Virus record (IMG/VR): IMGVR_UViG_2617271072_000010
Span: 1-16,408 of that record
Strand: one strand, 5' to 3'
Length of the DNA: 16,408 bases
DNA from: a virus
Taxonomy: Duplodnaviria > Heunggongvirae > Uroviricota > Caudoviricetes
Positions 1,246 through 16,408 of the stretch are shown here, piece by piece (within the stretch, counting starts at the first letter, position 1; every line of letters starts with the position of its first letter). The position numbers were made by a program, and so were the translations under genes. Under the pieces are notes generated by a model. The model saw only the letters and a program-made list of their open reading frames with translations, did not search any database and was not told the origin of the DNA.

Positions 1246-1800
1246 TTATTCGGTGAGTGCTTTGGTTAATCCGAGAAGTGGGATCTGTCCTTGCTTTTCG
1301 AGTCTCTCAATCTTCGCAAGTAGGACGGGCTTCTTCACCCTACCCCAACGATTCAGAAGACGGCCTGACATACTGGCCACATCCTTCTCCTTCATGAACT
1401 CCAGCATTACTGCATTTCGTTCTTCTTCAAACTGACGCCAGCCAACTTGAAGCATCGCGTACATCCAATTGAAAGCATTGATGTAAGCAATTTTGATCCG
1501 CATGGCTTCTTTCTTGGTGTAAGACATGACAAGAAGCATCAATCCATCCTTGCGGAGTCGGTAGAATTTCTGCGGTTTTCCATTCTGTAACTCATTGTTT
1601 CTATAGCAAAGCTCAAAGTTGAGCTTTGTATCAAACTCTGGTGGGCAAGCGTCTATGGTCCGTTCAATATCGCGAACTACGTTTTTCGACAGCTTACCGA
1701 ATGCTTTCGCCACCATAAACGAATCGGTAACCGGATCGTTGTTTGCTACAAAAATCAGGTCTCGGAAATCGATGCCGTTAACAACTGTTGGGTAGTTCAT
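1246..1800 (-). CDS. Rha-family phage regulatory (antirepressor-like) protein, 184 aa
   Basis: N-terminal segment ...PVTDSFMVAKAFGKLSKNVVRDIERTI... resembles the Phage_pRha domain. The stop codon lies 5 bp outside the IS3 terminus, so the ORF is not truncated by the IS. Confidence 0.6.
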   Translation of the reverse strand: MNYPTVVNGIDFRDLIFVANNDPVTDSFMVAKAFGKLSKNVVRDIERTIDACPPEFDTKLNFELCYRNNELQNGKPQKFYRLRKDGLMLLVMSYTKKEAMRIKIAYINAFNWMYAMLQVGWRQFEEERNAVMLEFMKEKDVASMSGRLLNRWGRVKKPVLLAKIERLEKQGQIPLLGLTKALTE

Positions 1801-3030: not shown

Positions 3031-3311
3031 TAGTGCCTCAGATGATCAACCAGCCGCGCTACGTTGCCTCTGACGGCGACAAGCACAGACAGGAAAATAA
3101 TGTTGGCCCCGATAGTGGCCCAAGATGAATAAGGGTAGATACCGCACAGATACGCCAGCGGTACGGCGCTATAAATGACCGTAAGCAGCCAAGCTAAGCG
3201 AGATATCCACGGTCGATGTCGCGAATCGCCGCGACGGTAAAACATCAGGGTCAGCACTACCCCAGCGCAGAGTAACGCATTGATAGTTGCCGATGGGTCA
3301 TTTAGTACCAC
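3030..3311 (-). CDS. Holin-like small membrane protein (second holin or antiholin candidate), 93 aa
   Basis: Strongly hydrophobic with predicted transmembrane helices; sits immediately upstream of and coupled to the endolysin. Confidence 0.5.
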   Translation of the reverse strand: MVLNDPSATINALLCAGVVLTLMFYRRGDSRHRPWISRLAWLLTVIYSAVPLAYLCGIYPYSSWATIGANIIFLSVLVAVRGNVARLVDHLRH

Positions 3312-3684
3312 CTGAACCTCCCCGGCGCGTTATCAGCGCCACCAGCGAGCCAACATCCTGATTATTCAGGAACGTCAGGATTTTGACGGCTAAAGCAGAA
3401 ACGATTACGGCACCAATGGCATCCAGTGGTTTATCACTGTAGCCAGTAACCTGAGCCAGCTTTGAACCCACCAGCCCGGAACAAAGGATCCCCGCAATAT
3501 ACGACACCAGAAAATATGCCAGACGGCGCGCTGCACTCAGGTCCGCTGTGGTGGCAATGTAAAATACAGCCCCGGCAAACGCGCCAAAGACCACGCCGTA
3601 ATCGGTTCCGGACAGAAATCCATAGACGCTGGCCCCCGTCAGGACACCACCAGCCAGCCCAGTACCGGAAATCGGATCGGACAT
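3298..3684 (-). CDS. Holin-like membrane protein, 128 aa
   Basis: Gly/Ala-rich hydrophobic segments predicting about three transmembrane helices; first gene of the lysis cassette; RBS AGAGGGGG upstream of the ATG. Confidence 0.5.
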   Translation of the reverse strand: MSDPISGTGLAGGVLTGASVYGFLSGTDYGVVFGAFAGAVFYIATTADLSAARRLAYFLVSYIAGILCSGLVGSKLAQVTGYSDKPLDAIGAVIVSALAVKILTFLNNQDVGSLVALITRRGGSGGTK

Positions 3685-3731
3685 TTAGCCCCCTCTTAAT
3701 TGCTGTGAATCCTCTCAGGAATGAGGGGAAT

Positions 3732-3753
3732 AAAAAAGGCCGCATAAGCGACC
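3732..3753 (-). terminator. Rho-independent terminator candidate just upstream of the holin (tR'-like position)
   Basis: Minus-strand hairpin GGTCGC-TTAT-GCGGCC followed by TTTTTT; a second imperfect hairpin (3711-3728) follows. Confidence 0.4.
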
Positions 3754-3776
3754 TCGACATTTGGATGTTAGTTTTT

Positions 3777-3998
3777 TTATATCCAGTGGCTCATCAATTC
3801 CGGCTGTACCTTTTGAAGCACTTCTTGCGGTGATGGGGCTTCAATAATTTCTGAGAATACACATCCCCTATCATTGAGTCTATGCTTAAACCTTGCCATT
3901 TTAGCGCTATCTCTATCAAGATACTCTTCTGAAACAACAAGATGCTTCTCAACTTCCAAACCTTCTTCTTTATGCTGGTAAACGTAATAAAACCCCAT
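3777..3998 (-). CDS. Hypothetical small acidic protein, about 73 aa from the internal ATG
   Basis: The ORF track starts at 4013, but the second ATG (3998) has a good RBS (AAGGAG, 5-nt spacer). No family recognised. GC intermediate. Confidence 0.35.
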   Translation of the reverse strand: MGFYYVYQHKEEGLEVEKHLVVSEEYLDRDSAKMARFKHRLNDRGCVFSEIIEAPSPQEVLQKVQPELMSHWI

Positions 3999-4045
3999 GG
4001 AGTCTCCTTTCATTTAGGTGCCTGTTATGAATACCACCATAAAGC

Positions 4046-4067
4046 AAAAAACCCCGCCAAAGCGAGG
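4046..4067 (-). terminator. Rho-independent terminator candidate downstream of the nuclease-like cargo gene
   Basis: Minus-strand hairpin CCTCGC-TTTG-GCGGGG (one G-U) followed by TTTTTT. Confidence 0.45.
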
Positions 4068-4222
4068 TTTAAAATCTTTTAAGTACGTGTCCAAGTGACC
4101 AATCTTAACACAGTACAACAAGATTTGCGGACCGCGCTAGGGATTTCTTATTCTTTTTTACCAGATTAGATGCAGCTCGACATCTATAAAGAATCATTAT
4201 TATATTCAATCTTTAAATAAGT

Positions 4223-5072
4223 TCATAGTTGAACCCTAGCACTTCCACCATTTTGAACTGGTGAAATATAATCGGAGAACTCAGGATATAAGGAAATTTT
4301 ACCAGAGGTTAACATAAACATAAATGTACCGAAAAACTTCATGTGGAAATATTCATCATCTTTTGGAGTCAAGAAGCAACTTTTAAAGTTTTGCTGGCGA
4401 AGCATCGGGAATGGAAGTTTCACTCCATCCGGGGCTGAATAGGCAAGAAGCCCATCTTCGATACTAAGGATTAGGTTATGCCTATGCCTAAATTGTATTT
4501 CATCAGAGTAAAGATTATCTAGTTCATTTTCTATATTGCTTATATCAAAATCAAGCTTCTTACAGATCAATATGCTAGAATAAACATGAAAAGGGTTGTT
4601 TTCCGGATCAAAGTTAAAACTGCTAGAGTTAAAACTTAATGAAGGGTTTTTTATTCTCTCGGCGATTGCTTTATTTTTCGCCAGTTTGTTAATGGCGTCT
4701 CGAAAAGCAGCGCGAGATAAATTTGACTTAACCTCACCAATGCAGTAAACAGATTCAATTGGGAAAAACCTATGTTTATCTCCACCTTGAAAAAGTGGTG
4801 TCATTTTAGAATCAAAAATAACAACATCACACTGCGTGCTAATGTCATCCATCGCGGACATTAAAAAACCATTAGATATAGCAAGTCGCTGAGGAACTAT
4901 AAAGTTCAAAAAATCCCTTACTACCGACTCACGATATATTCCATATTCACCAGCATGAATAAGACGATTGTTTTCAGGATCATAAAAAACTTCAGTTGAA
5001 GTTGCGGAAAAAGAATTTTTTAAAAATATCTATTTTCTCACGGTATAGTGCATCAAATATCCTATTTGACAT
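4223..5072 (-). pseudogene. Low-GC cargo gene with a PD-(D/E)xK-like nuclease motif, family unassigned; split by a +1 frame change in a T5-A6-T5 run (reconstructed product about 283 aa)
   Basis: ATG at 5072 has a strong RBS (AGGAGG) and opens a 27-codon frame ending at 4992. The main frame (4223-4909, TTG start in the ORF track) is open back to 5029; one base fewer in the TTTTT/AAAAAA run near 5005-5020 joins them. Motif: ...CDVVIFD...(22 aa)...PIESVYCIGEVKSN (D then E-x-K). Confidence 0.45.
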
Positions 5073-5093
5073 ATTACCCTCCTGTATATATGA

Positions 5094-5129
5094 ATACCCA
5101 TGATACAAATATAGTCTCATCATGGGTAT
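5094..5129. promoter_or_regulatory. Perfect 11-bp inverted repeat (ATACCCATGAT-N14-ATCATGGGTAT) between Q and the cargo gene
   Basis: Read directly from the sequence; no adjacent T-run on either strand, so not an intrinsic terminator. This is where pR'/qut would be expected. Confidence 0.3.
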
Positions 5130-5146
5130 ACACTTCAGAGCATAAA

Positions 5147-5521
5147 TTAACTTATCTCAACATCCATATCTAGTGTTATGTCTAGCATAGAAAGGCAACC
5201 ATCGATGAACCCTTCAGCCATCTGCATTTCAATACGTATCAATTTCTCATCTTTTTTGCGAGCTCTTGCAAGCTTTCTTTTCGAGATGCCATACAGGTAA
5301 TGGGCCACAATCAAAGAATGCTCGTACGGTTTTCGCTTTTTAAGAAGAGCAAGACAACCTTCAATAATTAATGCATCACTATCTGAACAAGCCTGACGTG
5401 TTTTGCTTGTATAGGGAAGAAGCCCTTTAAACCCAGCAGCTATAGGAGAATAGTCTACTCCTGAACTATCACTCGCCGCCCATGCTCCCCAACGATCCAG
5501 AACCATTTGAATATCACGCAT
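5147..5521 (-). CDS. Late-gene antiterminator Q (DLP12 QuuD / Qin QuuQ type), about 124 aa
   Basis: MRDIQMVLDRWGAWAA...AAGFKGLL... resembles the Q antiterminators of E. coli lambdoid prophages as I recall them. ATG at 5521 has GGAG 7 nt upstream; the ORF track starts at a TTG at 5536. Confidence 0.8.
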   Translation of the reverse strand: MRDIQMVLDRWGAWAASDSSGVDYSPIAAGFKGLLPYTSKTRQACSDSDALIIEGCLALLKKRKPYEHSLIVAHYLYGISKRKLARARKKDEKLIRIEMQMAEGFIDGCLSMLDITLDMDVEIS

Positions 5522-10733: not shown

Positions 10734-11406
10734 ATGAAAACAATCCATGACATCCGGCGGTCTAACGCCAGAAAACTGAGAGATGGTGTTGGCGGGAATT
10801 CTTCCTTTGCCACTATGATTGATCGCGAGCCAACCCAGACCAGCAGGTTTATGGGAGATGGTGCTACTAAAAATATCGGTGACAGCATGGCACGACACAT
10901 CGAAAAATGTTTCGACCTGCCTGTCGGATGGCTCGATCAAGAACACCAGACAACGAACATCACAAAAAACCTGATGTTTCAATCACTAATAAACAAATCA
11001 CATTAGTCCCTGTCATATCATGGTACAGGCCGGAGCATGGAAAGAAGTTGGATATTCTGAGGTTGATTTGAGCACAGCAGAAACGTATCCCTGCCCTGTA
11101 CCCTGTGGGGAAATGACTTATATCTTGCGGGTGATAGGTGATTCAATGATTGATGAGTACCGCCCGGGAGACATGATTTTTGTCGATCCTGAAGTACCTG
11201 CCTGCCACGGTGACGACGTTATTGCATTGATGCACGATACAGGTGAAACCACCTTCAAAAGGTTGATAGAAGATGGGACACAGCGTTATCTCAAAGCGTT
11301 AAACCCAAACTGGCCTGAGCCTTACATTAAGATCAACGGTAATTGCTCTATAATTGGTACAGTGATTTTCTCAGGAAAACCAAGAAGATACAAAATCAAA
11401 GCCTAA
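10734..11406 (+). pseudogene. CI-like repressor (HTH domain plus S24 LexA-like peptidase domain) split over three frames
   Basis: 10734-11006 encodes the HTH domain (...IGDSMARHIEKCFDLPVGWLDQE...); 11020-11406 encodes the S24 domain (MVQAGAWKEV...RVIGDSM...TTFKRL). A third frame between them reads ...KQITLVPVISW. One extra A in the A6 run (10964-10969) and one extra base near 11021 would give an intact repressor of about 222 aa. Confidence 0.7.
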
Positions 11407-14094: not shown

Positions 14095-14304
14095 ATGGCA
14101 AAACTAATGAAAGCGAGCCAATGGGGACGCCGTGAATTCTCTAATGGCTCAATTCCTGACAACCGAACGATAAAACGTTGGGTCGAGAACGGTCTACTCA
14201 TGGGACGCATCGTGGACGGTTCTGTTTTTGTCTGCGAAACAGAAAAATGGGGAGTCGACTCAATGGTTAGTCAAGCTGTTCGCAAGTTAATAAACGAGGG
14301 GTGA
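14095..14304 (+). CDS. xis: Excisionase (lambda Xis-like), about 69 aa
   Basis: ...QWGRREFSNGSIPDNRTIKRWVENGLLMGRIVDGSVFVCETE... parallels lambda Xis (...WNARQRRPRSLETVRRWVRECRIF...); start set at the ATG at 14095 (GGAG upstream); immediately precedes the integrase. Confidence 0.6.
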   Translation: MAKLMKASQWGRREFSNGSIPDNRTIKRWVENGLLMGRIVDGSVFVCETEKWGVDSMVSQAVRKLINEG

Positions 14305-15489
14305 CCATGGCGGCAAGGCCACGTAAAAAAGAATACAGACATCTTCCTGATTATCTGATTTTTGATAAAGATCGAGGTGTTTATAAATTCACACTTATTA
14401 CTGGAAAGAAGAAAAATATAGGTAAGGATAGGGCAATAGCCATTGCAATCGCCAGAGAGTACAACCTGAGGATGAGAGCAGAATTATCTCCATCAGTAGA
14501 AAATCTTATTAGAGAATCTGGCGGTGTTATCGGAGAAGCAAAACCATTTGCTGAACATGTTGATCACATAATGACCCGGATTATCGAAGACGAACGTCCT
14601 TCCCAGAGCACCTTAGATGACTGGAAAAATGACGCTCTACGCGTAAAAGCGTTTTTTCGTAAATGTTCCGGCATGCGATATCGAACTTGAACACGTTAAT
14701 ACCTACATCAACAAATATCATGCCAGCGCATCCGCAAATGTGCAGAACAGAAAGGTCAGCTTTCTTAAAAAAGTTGTTCTCTTATGCGGTCGATGAATCA
14801 CTAATGCTGGATAACCCGGCCATCAGAAAAAAAATGCGTAGGACTGATGAGAAGAAAAAGACGGCGCCTGTCACTCGAGCATTTTATAGCTATCAGGCAG
14901 GCCGCTGCACCATGGTTAAGAACAGCAATGGACCTAGCATTGCAAACTACACATGCACGACTCGAAGTATCGCGAATCCGTTACTCAATTCGCGAACCTA
15001 AAGACGGTATATGTGGATGTGTCTGGTTCGAACAACCACAAAATGGCATATATGGGACGCTTTACATCCACAGGCAAAAAGTGCAAAAAAAAAGAGGCGT
15101 CACACGTTGCAATACCAATTGGTGAAGAGTTGAAACGGATAATTGACGATAGCCGAGATAATGTGGCTAGTCCGTTTGTCGTTCACAGAATCCCAGAACG
15201 CCAAGTTAAACGAAGCAAAGAGGTTTCACATCCGACACAAGTTGCACCAGACTATTTGAGTCGATCGTTTTCAGCAACGCGAGACAAGCTAGGTTTATGC
15301 GACAATCTACCGATGGATGAAAGACCAACCTTTCATGAAATCAGAGCTCTGGCAGCGCATCTTTTCGATCAGCAGGGTATCGATCCCCAAGGACGAATGG
15401 CACATAGCGACGCTCAGTCGACTAAGATTTACACTCAAAACCACATTAATTGGATTGTCGTTCCACACGGGGAAATCAAAACTGGTTAA
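14301..15489 (+). pseudogene. int: Lambda-family tyrosine integrase split over four frame segments
   Basis: The N-terminal arm-binding region and the C-terminal catalytic region (...PTFHEIRALAAHLF...AHSDAQSTKIY...) are recognisable and follow lambda Int in order, but the frame changes at T6 (14652-14657), A6 (14767-14772), A8 (14827-14834) and A9 (15085-15093). Confidence 0.8.
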
Positions 15490-15688
15490 AATTGCATTAA
15501 TTCAGATTTTATCCTTGCATTGCTATGGTACAGACCTAAACAAGCATGTGCCAAAAACAGGCTATTGTAGGGATACTCACATCTTTCAGGTATTATATTT
15601 TGCATAACCGAAAGTGAGGCAACAAACAGAAATGCCATGCTTTTAAACGCGATACTTCACAATAAGAGTTAAGGTAAAAGGAGCGATA

Positions 15689-16408
15689 ATGGAAGATTTA
15701 GTATGTAGTTGGTCACCGAAACTAATCGTTGAACTGATAAAAAGCATTGCATGGCCAGTTGTTGTTCTTATCATCGGATTCAGATTCCGAACTCGAATTT
15801 TTGAAGTTGTCAGTTCTTTTTTTTCTAAAAATACGCTATCAGAAATATCCGCGACTTTATCGGGTATATCGGCAAAATTCATAGCAGAGAAACAAACAGC
15901 AGAAGTATTAGAATCTTCAAATTCTAATTTGGCGAGCTTACAAAAGAATACGAGCATTGAAGCTATAAGAATACACCATGAACAATTTAAAACTGAATTC
16001 AGTGAAGAATTATATCAAATCATATTGAAACAAGCATCTGATCTAGATACTGACAATGAAATTAAAATTGATTTATTGGCACGAGAAATATCTCTTTTGC
16101 AAAGTGCTGTAAGATACTTTGAAATAAACAAGGTATTATTCCGCTCACAATATGACTTATTTTATACAATTGCTAGCAATGGTGGTTATATCCGCAAAGA
16201 AGATGCTATTCAGTTCTTTGAAAAAACAAAAAATCATAATAAAGAAGCTTTCGCGGATTGGGATTGGATCAAATATATTTCGTATCCAGTAAGCAATAAA
16301 CTCATTTATGAAAGTGATGCTGGTTACAAACTCACTACGATAGGAAGCTCATATGTAGCTTTTATGTCAAAGAACCCACAATTGATTGACGAGCTTGCTA
16401 AATTATAA
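15689..16408 (+). CDS. AT-rich hypothetical protein with an N-terminal TM anchor, 239 aa; cargo gene distal to the integrase
   Basis: Ideal RBS (AAGGAG, 5-nt spacer) before the ATG at 15689; hydrophobic segment LIVELIKSIAWPVVVLIIGF; stop codon is the last three bases of the window. No family recognised. Confidence 0.5.
   Translation: MEDLVCSWSPKLIVELIKSIAWPVVVLIIGFRFRTRIFEVVSSFFSKNTLSEISATLSGISAKFIAEKQTAEVLESSNSNLASLQKNTSIEAIRIHHEQFKTEFSEELYQIILKQASDLDTDNEIKIDLLAREISLLQSAVRYFEINKVLFRSQYDLFYTIASNGGYIRKEDAIQFFEKTKNHNKEAFADWDWIKYISYPVSNKLIYESDAGYKLTTIGSSYVAFMSKNPQLIDELAKL

Follow-up and report, generated by a model that had tools for sequence, protein, structure and literature searches.

Nucleases with the NucC fold are normally known as effectors that are activated by cyclic nucleotides. 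NucC itself (PDB 6P7O, 6P7P, 6Q1H, and 7ZGV) is the endonuclease, activated by cyclic triadenylate (cA3), of type III CBASS systems (anti-phage signaling based on cyclic oligonucleotides) and of type III clustered regularly interspaced short palindromic repeats (CRISPR) systems. A homotrimer, it forms a hexamer when its ligand binds. For cA3 it needs Arg53, Tyr81, Thr226, and a His136/Tyr141 latch; among these, Tyr81 stacks on each adenine and is essential (bioRxiv 10.1101/694703). Damona, found in the chromosomal integron of Vibrio cholerae and also in prophages, is an anti-phage cassette consisting of a single DUF6602 gene (Darracq et al., bioRxiv 10.1101/2024.07.02.601686), and the Damona paper was the only one to name DUF6602 in the literature that we searched. 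With respect to phage regulation, a described system is that of the antiterminator Q21, whose binding element consists of two 8-bp subsites in direct repeat, beside a sigma-dependent pause element and then a terminator, and to whose Q21/933W family Pfam PF06530 is assigned (bioRxiv 10.1101/651190). Here we describe an AT-rich stretch at positions 3690-5146 of a 16,408-nucleotide Caudoviricetes sequence (IMG/VR record IMGVR_UViG_2617271072_000010; hereafter the window), which lies between the late antiterminator gene Q and the lysis genes of a lambdoid Escherichia coli prophage and carries a nuclease gene and a small open reading frame (ORF); all relevant genes of the region are on the minus strand. 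We favor, with moderate confidence, a reading in which two independent cassettes are arranged around the late-promoter (pR') module, the upstream one encoding a NucC-like defense DNase and the downstream one contributing a 73-amino-acid ORF to the late operon.

The gene order on the minus strand runs from a DUF968 gene (6534-5539) through Q (5521-5147) and the AT-rich stretch to two holin genes and a GH108 endolysin gene (3684-2488). The left boundary of the cargo is Q (5147-5521, minus strand), a late antiterminator of the Q21/933W family by its match to PF06530 (expect value, E, 5e-52), and the right boundary is the first lysis gene, a holin identified by a Phage_holin_8 domain match (3298-3684, minus strand). 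The G+C fraction of 3690-5146 is 0.364; the whole window has 0.473, the lysis genes have 0.543, and DUF968 has 0.551, and just 7 of 299 windows of the same size are as low or lower; across the boundaries, the cargo lies at 0.35-0.40 and the flanks at 0.54-0.55. Among 5426 complete E. coli genomes, 7 carry the stretch, at 99.9% identity; among 50,697 phage genomes, a DNA search found none that does, and short non-coding pieces alone are matched there. Phages whose Q is nearly identical, or whose lysis genes are the same, have different sequence at this place. Because it is rare and missing from most relatives that share Q and the lysis genes, the AT-rich stretch is horizontally acquired cargo. 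This bears out the initial annotation, which had singled out an AT-rich segment of about 1.45 kb between Q and the first lysis gene and had taken it for cargo; what we found was neither a conserved backbone of ordinary G+C content nor a pair of standard lysis or packaging accessories.

The cargo is, however, not the single insert that had been proposed: it is two separate inserts in two variable slots, with a conserved non-coding module (4135-4041) between them. We regard this module, at 4041-4135 on the minus strand, as the putative late-promoter module of this Q family, and its elements can be provisionally assigned, all on the minus strand, as follows. Just downstream of an A-rich tract (about 4160-4140) lies a GCGGTCCGCA block (4135-4126), followed by an extended -10 element, TGtTAAGAT (4110-4102); two 8-bp units in direct repeat, TGGTCACT and TGGACACG (4101-4086), which may form the Q-binding element; TTAAAA (4082-4077), a possible pause element; and a probable intrinsic terminator with its stem-loop at 4070-4049 and a T-run extending to 4041. 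The segment 4156-4048 resembles the sequence directly upstream of the holin gene in phage mEp390 and in Klebsiella phages, and in phages cdtI and SfIV the same module comes after cargo genes of the opposite strand. In the Stx2a phage Stx2_14040 it comes immediately after the Q stop codon, with stx2AB farther downstream, while in Citrobacter and metagenomic prophages with a homolog of the nuclease it stands between that gene and a DNA methylase gene. The module is linked to Q. A scan of IMG/VR with a pattern that fixed the GCGGTCCGCA and TGTTAAGA blocks yielded 120 module loci, and a Q homolog (53-96% identity) lies upstream on the same strand in 113 of the 113 loci with enough upstream DNA, reference loci included. 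The gap from Q to the module is 28-40 bp in 36 of these loci and 836-2541 bp in the other 77. When loci were instead picked by Q homology alone, free of motif ascertainment, the module was found 697-2756 bp downstream in 71 of 77, and in three of the six loci lacking it the downstream sequence is shorter than 2 kb. All 91 distinct module variants keep the A-rich tract, the extended -10 (TGtTAAGAG), two directly repeated 8-bp units, TTAAA, and then a GC-rich hairpin with a T-run, the stem of which varies by compensatory substitutions; the invariance of the GCGGTCCGCA and TGTTAAGA blocks among them is a product of the search pattern and carries no weight as evidence. Of the Q21 cassette, the PF06530 Q and the terminator are matched here, and the TGGTCACT/TGGACACG repeat fits the published account of the binding element in a comparison by description only; the Q of the window is distant from Q21, whose chains are its only PDB relatives (E 0.002). 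From these features we infer that 4135-4041 would combine the late promoter of this Q with its Q-loading site and its terminator (pR'/tR').

Upstream of the module, insert 1 (4136-5146, minus strand) carries the nuclease gene. This slot holds at least 15 unrelated cassettes across the sampled loci (L007-L126, L213-L289), mostly on the opposite strand, and several of them are defense-like. The commonest, in 21 loci, pairs a DUF6731 protein with a 150-residue membrane protein, and another, in 18 loci, encodes a protein of 340-350 residues with no family match; neither has a defense annotation. There follow a three-gene set with PDC-S42 (12 loci), a KAP NTPase/PDC-S20 cassette (5 loci), TIR-TM (in mEp390), and others with NYN, an HNH protein similar to CBASS effector nucleases, SMEK, an SDH-type protease, or IS1. 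As an observation in its own right, the DUF6731 pair and the 340-350-residue protein are candidates for new defense genes. The initial annotation had asked whether the insert occurs in other phage backbones. Three further lambdoid backbones, whose lysis and packaging genes differ from those of the window, hold homologs of the nuclease with 88% and 73% identity in this slot, again 75 bp after Q. The 3' end of Q, the 75-bp spacer, and the nuclease gene are conserved together in L127-L129 and move as one block.

Slot 2, between tR' and the holin gene, contains a clean insertion of about 282 bp (3757-4040, minus strand) relative to minimal relatives, as seen in alignment with L017, L062, L109, L124, and mEp390. 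It carries the 73-residue ORF, which runs from an ATG at 3998 to 3777 on the minus strand behind a strong ribosome-binding site (AAAGGAG, 4010-4004) and whose mildly acidic product (pI 5.5) agrees with the small acidic ORF reported earlier. The protein matches phrog_5440 (E 1e-23) and has no Pfam or PADLOC match; its model (pLDDT, the predicted local distance difference test, 82) gave no significant fold match, and the family is rare, with about three clusters at 50% identity in 1.8 billion representative proteins. Its homologs, from Gifsy-2, a Pectobacterium prophage, and phages whose Q is of the Q82 type, are always found between Q and holin, and their Q families and lysis cassettes differ from those of the window. 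Of 27 loci that share the holin family of the window, 11 have nothing in the slot, and their holin gene starts 137-142 bp after the -10 block. A second terminator-like hairpin with a T-run (3730-3755, stem 3755-3736, minus strand) lies directly upstream of the holin ribosome-binding site and is kept in relatives without the 73-residue ORF as well as in Klebsiella and E. coli phages. Since the hairpins at 4070-4049 and 3755-3736 are present in relatives that lack both ORFs, they are phage backbone, tandem late-leader terminators, and not cargo; the initial annotation was right that a terminator-like hairpin follows each ORF, though not in counting the hairpins with the insert. Slot 2 is a position of the stx type, and the 73-residue ORF, small and mobile, stands first among the genes of the late operon; its product would be made together with the lysis genes once Q acts. 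In a separate observation, a related locus (L293, 3889-3959) has an Rfam match to isrJ (67.5 bits; gathering score 37) between a Q82-family Q and a homolog of the 73-residue protein; because it is located where a short pR'-tR' transcript is expected, the isrJ "small RNA" may be a phage late-leader RNA.

Cargo 1 is a stand-alone NucC-like PD-(D/E)xK endonuclease (DUF6602; 4223-5072, minus strand), with 282 amino acids when intact. The nuclease motif noted in the initial annotation is substantiated by profile matches to PF20247 (DUF6602; E 7e-22) and to the PADLOC profiles PD_DExK (2e-30), NucC (6e-19), and CBASS effector (4.5e-18), and a sequence search of the PDB returned NucC chains alone (E 1e-10 with the single sequence, 6e-17 with a profile). 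Structural comparison was made with an AlphaFold monomer model of an 88%-identical Citrobacter homolog (P0001; pLDDT 91.3). In Foldseek against the PDB, NucC was the sole significant match (E 1e-14; template-modeling score 0.65/0.76 over about 270 columns), the next standing at E 0.27, and the nuclease is thus predicted to have the full NucC fold, including the embellishments outside the nuclease core. The two proteins share an N-terminal H/G/G/E motif, the family PF20247, and an active site of the same type, Q-C-D82...E113-V-K115 in the window against IDx30EAK in NucC; D82, E113, and K115 are invariant in 111 of 111 homologs and align with D73 and the EAK motif of NucC. They differ in that identity is about 17% and the window nuclease is 40 residues longer, with a longer loop at the gate-loop position. 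They differ also in context: the gene described here has no CD-NTase or Cas10 partner and sits in a prophage with Q upstream and the putative pR' downstream, whereas a true nucC operon is seen in a plasmid record (L292).

The large ORF therefore encodes a nuclease of a defense-associated kind, in line with the defense-type function suggested earlier, and it resembles the single-gene system Damona. Both consist of one gene of DUF6602 with the same matches to Cas PD_DExK and CBASS small-endonuclease profiles. The single-gene status of the window nuclease is judged from context, as no conserved neighbor or cyclase was found near its homologs in 69 genome loci. There is also overlap in location: Damona occurs in integron cassettes and in prophages, and a homolog of the window nuclease with 48% identity lies in a cassette adjoining the integron integrase of Aliivibrio fischeri. 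The Damona prophages, however, are reported from Acinetobacter, and the window nuclease belongs to an E. coli lambdoid and to the slot between Q and pR'. The nuclease is probably of an anti-phage type. We would picture it as a latent DNase whose trigger is not the classical cA3 contact; once activated, it would destroy the DNA of the infected cell or of a superinfecting phage, resulting in abortive infection or exclusion.

How the gene is expressed is the weakest part of this defense model. The nuclease gene points in the direction of Q, and a strong ribosome-binding site (AGGAGGG) lies 5 nucleotides upstream of its ATG at 5072. Within the spacer, a perfect 11-bp inverted repeat, ATACCCATGAT-N14-ATCATGGGTAT (5094-5129, minus strand), has no T-run and is predicted to fold as RNA at -24.1 kcal/mol (z -2.15). 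Homologous loci keep this repeat apart from a single difference, which a G.U pair would accommodate; it may act as an RNA hairpin or as an operator. Matches from a promoter scan were discarded as evidence, being no more numerous than in shuffled sequence, as was a TCGACA-18-TATATT match (10/12) on the plus strand at 4177-4206, which runs antisense to the nuclease gene at its 3' end and whose spacing is not conserved in L127. Because the two genes are co-directional and 75 bp apart with no convincing promoter or terminator between them, co-transcription with Q is the most economical account; the early-right operon would supply the nuclease mRNA along with that of Q, and a weak promoter belonging to the nuclease gene itself may add to it. 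The same layout invites a rather unlikely alternative, namely that the nuclease serves the phage's lytic cycle as a delayed-early gene, made with Q, and degrades host or competitor DNA or aids replication or recombination. It draws on the shared orientation, on the short gap with neither a T-run terminator nor a consensus promoter in it, and on the movement of the Q 3' end, spacer, and nuclease gene as one block. The distribution of the family speaks against it. Most homologs, spread over many phyla, are stand-alone genes of chromosomes, belong to integron cassettes, or lie in defense-island-like settings, such as a Burkholderia island with a KAP NTPase; the fold is all but missing from phage genomes and from the viral proteins on record, as a viral structure library gave no match at E <=0.001 and tblastn of the protein found none in the 50,697 phage genomes. 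Furthermore, a DUF6602 protein with tested defense activity exists (bioRxiv 10.1101/2024.07.02.601686), and a non-specific DNase of NucC type would cut the DNA of the phage as well.

The initial annotation had placed the whole insert at the stx-equivalent position, with its expression driven by Q-dependent late transcription. In its fullest form this would make the 1.45 kb one moron downstream of the late promoter, comparable to stx, with strong expression of both genes only by way of Q-dependent read-through. We consider this unlikely for the insert as a whole, even though the stretch does lie between Q and holin on the strand of the late genes, a hairpin does follow each ORF, and Stx phages with a related Q do carry cargo between Q and the lysis genes. 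The module that abuts Q when slot 1 is empty, and that precedes stx2AB in Stx2_14040, lies downstream of the nuclease gene in the window; the hairpins are elements of the backbone; and the slot-1 cargo of many relatives points the other way, in some cases with Q followed by a bidirectional terminator, which would misfit a late leader that starts at Q. The stx comparison therefore holds for one of the two genes. As in phages of the 933W type and Stx2_14040, in which the stx operon or other morons lie downstream of pR'/tR', the 73-residue ORF follows the late-leader terminator and precedes the holin gene; the nuclease gene is on the other side of the promoter module, and toxin-like features are lacking. 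Since it lies upstream of the putative pR', the nuclease gene is not at the stx position and its expression is probably not Q-dependent.

A third possibility concerns the trigger. As an orphan NucC effector, the protein would have kept its binding of cA3, or of some other cyclic oligonucleotide, and would join a CBASS or type III CRISPR system whose genes are elsewhere in the host. The predicted full-length NucC fold speaks for this, as do the extended loop at the place of the NucC gate loop (residues of about 140-164, with lower pLDDT), the alignment of Arg62 in the window protein with Arg53 of NucC, and the presence of bona fide NucC in the same Pfam family. Of the NucC ligand residues, Arg53 and Tyr81 are the ones that can be aligned here, the profile alignment covering residues 33-137, and neither is conserved in the family. 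The Tyr81 position holds Met in 74 of 111 homologs, the window protein among them (otherwise S10/L9/I8/N4), and is aromatic in none, while the Arg53 position is Ser or Gly in 69 (S47/G22) and Arg in 19. No cyclase or CRISPR genes were seen near the 69 homologs, and we regard a retained cyclic-oligonucleotide trigger as very unlikely.

As given, the window does not encode the intact nuclease. One extra A in a homopolymer (A6 at 5016-5021, minus strand, where relatives have A5) breaks the gene after codon 17 and splits it into ORFs 4992-5123 and 4223-4909. The 7 complete E. coli genomes that carry the stretch all have A5 and an intact gene of 282 residues (WP_053286213.1). Over 15.2 kb, the window differs from the near-identical prophage of E. 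coli VTB97448v by three substitutions and 13 single-base indels, all of them homopolymeric (positions 5021, 6574, 8899, 9049, 9940, 10970, 11024, 12825, 13435, 14657, 14772, 14859, and 15093). Other genes are broken in the same way: a CI-like repressor is left as an ORF with an S24 domain alone (11020-11406), the integrase is cut into three ORFs (14301-15489), and the C-terminus of KilA-N is altered. Given such an excess of homopolymer indels over substitutions and the damage to other genes, the frameshift is almost certainly a homopolymer sequencing error, and we have therefore treated the nuclease gene as intact. Programmed frameshifting or phase variation at the A-run was rejected on account of the 12 further homopolymer indels in the window. 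That the gene is instead a dead pseudogene in an insert without function, as the split ORF might suggest, is quite implausible in view of this indel signature and of the intact copies in all seven genomes. The VTB97448v prophage (L291, 9479-10656) also has an IS3 insertion between RusA and KilA-N that is missing from the window.

Several points weigh against the two-cassette reading, and against its defense component in particular. The -35 of the module is poor, its -10 ends in G in most relatives, two of its conserved blocks were set by our own search pattern, and the pR', Q-binding element, and pause site of this Q subfamily are putative. The promoter scan upstream of the nuclease gene found no consensus-like promoter for expression in the lysogen, which is unusual for a prophage defense gene, and most other cargo of slot 1 is on the opposite strand. 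With regard to the protein itself, the copy in the window is frameshifted as it stands; its C-terminal half, with any counterparts of the Thr226/Val227 contacts and of the His136/Tyr141 gate-loop latch, is not alignable residue by residue to NucC, such that some of a ligand pocket may persist; the position equivalent to Arg53 is Arg; and the likeness to Damona is one of description and profiles.

A broader proposal can be put forward more tentatively. It is possible, though we hold it doubtful, that the gap between Q and the late promoter in lambdoids of the Q21 family is an unrecognized and highly variable defense hotspot, and that the NucC-fold nuclease found in it here represents a cyclase-independent branch with another trigger in place of cA3 sensing. 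Of the cassette types in this gap, several are uncharacterized, among them the DUF6731 pair, the 340-350-residue protein, and the three-gene set with PDC-S42. A fixed position flanked by conserved phage genes, with alternative, mostly defense-like cassettes, is likewise a property of the P2/P4 defense hotspots (Rousset et al., 2022, PMC9122126) and of phi80 Tai in the late region (PMC11364771). Unlike those hotspots, the present slot lies between Q and the late promoter and belongs to Q21-family phages, and no description of it was found in the literature searched. Elsewhere in a related prophage, that of E. coli VE-T9 (L290, 5199-7301), the sequence just beyond the integrase codes for DUF2326, an AAA ATPase, and a protein with a SMEK domain, which would make up a defense-like cluster on the attachment-site side.

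Other parts of the window offer some further observations. Beyond the integrase, 15600-16408 is a second AT-rich region (G+C 0.30-0.37) with an ORF (15689-16408) of at least 239 residues that has no Pfam match, is a hypothetical protein in relatives, and may be cargo at the prophage end. Downstream of the lysis cassette, a gene for a regulator with Rha/ORF11CD3 domains (1246-1800, minus strand) precedes the HNH and terminase genes seen in relatives and represents another accessory position in this phage group. A search of the cargo region with Rfam gave sub-threshold matches alone, the best being STnc180 at the module (21.5 bits against a gathering score of 50), and a tRNA search found none.

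For the biology of these phages, it is the place of a gene relative to pR' that decides its timing, and cargo between Q and holin is not all under the control of Q in the manner of stx. Two leads are of moderate interest, the slot between Q and pR' as a possible defense hotspot and the NucC fold without contacts of the cA3 type. Bounded as it is by Q and a recognizable DNA motif, the slot could be mined for new defense genes, and a stand-alone NucC-fold nuclease in an E. coli prophage provides a tractable system in which to study how such an enzyme may be triggered without a cyclase.

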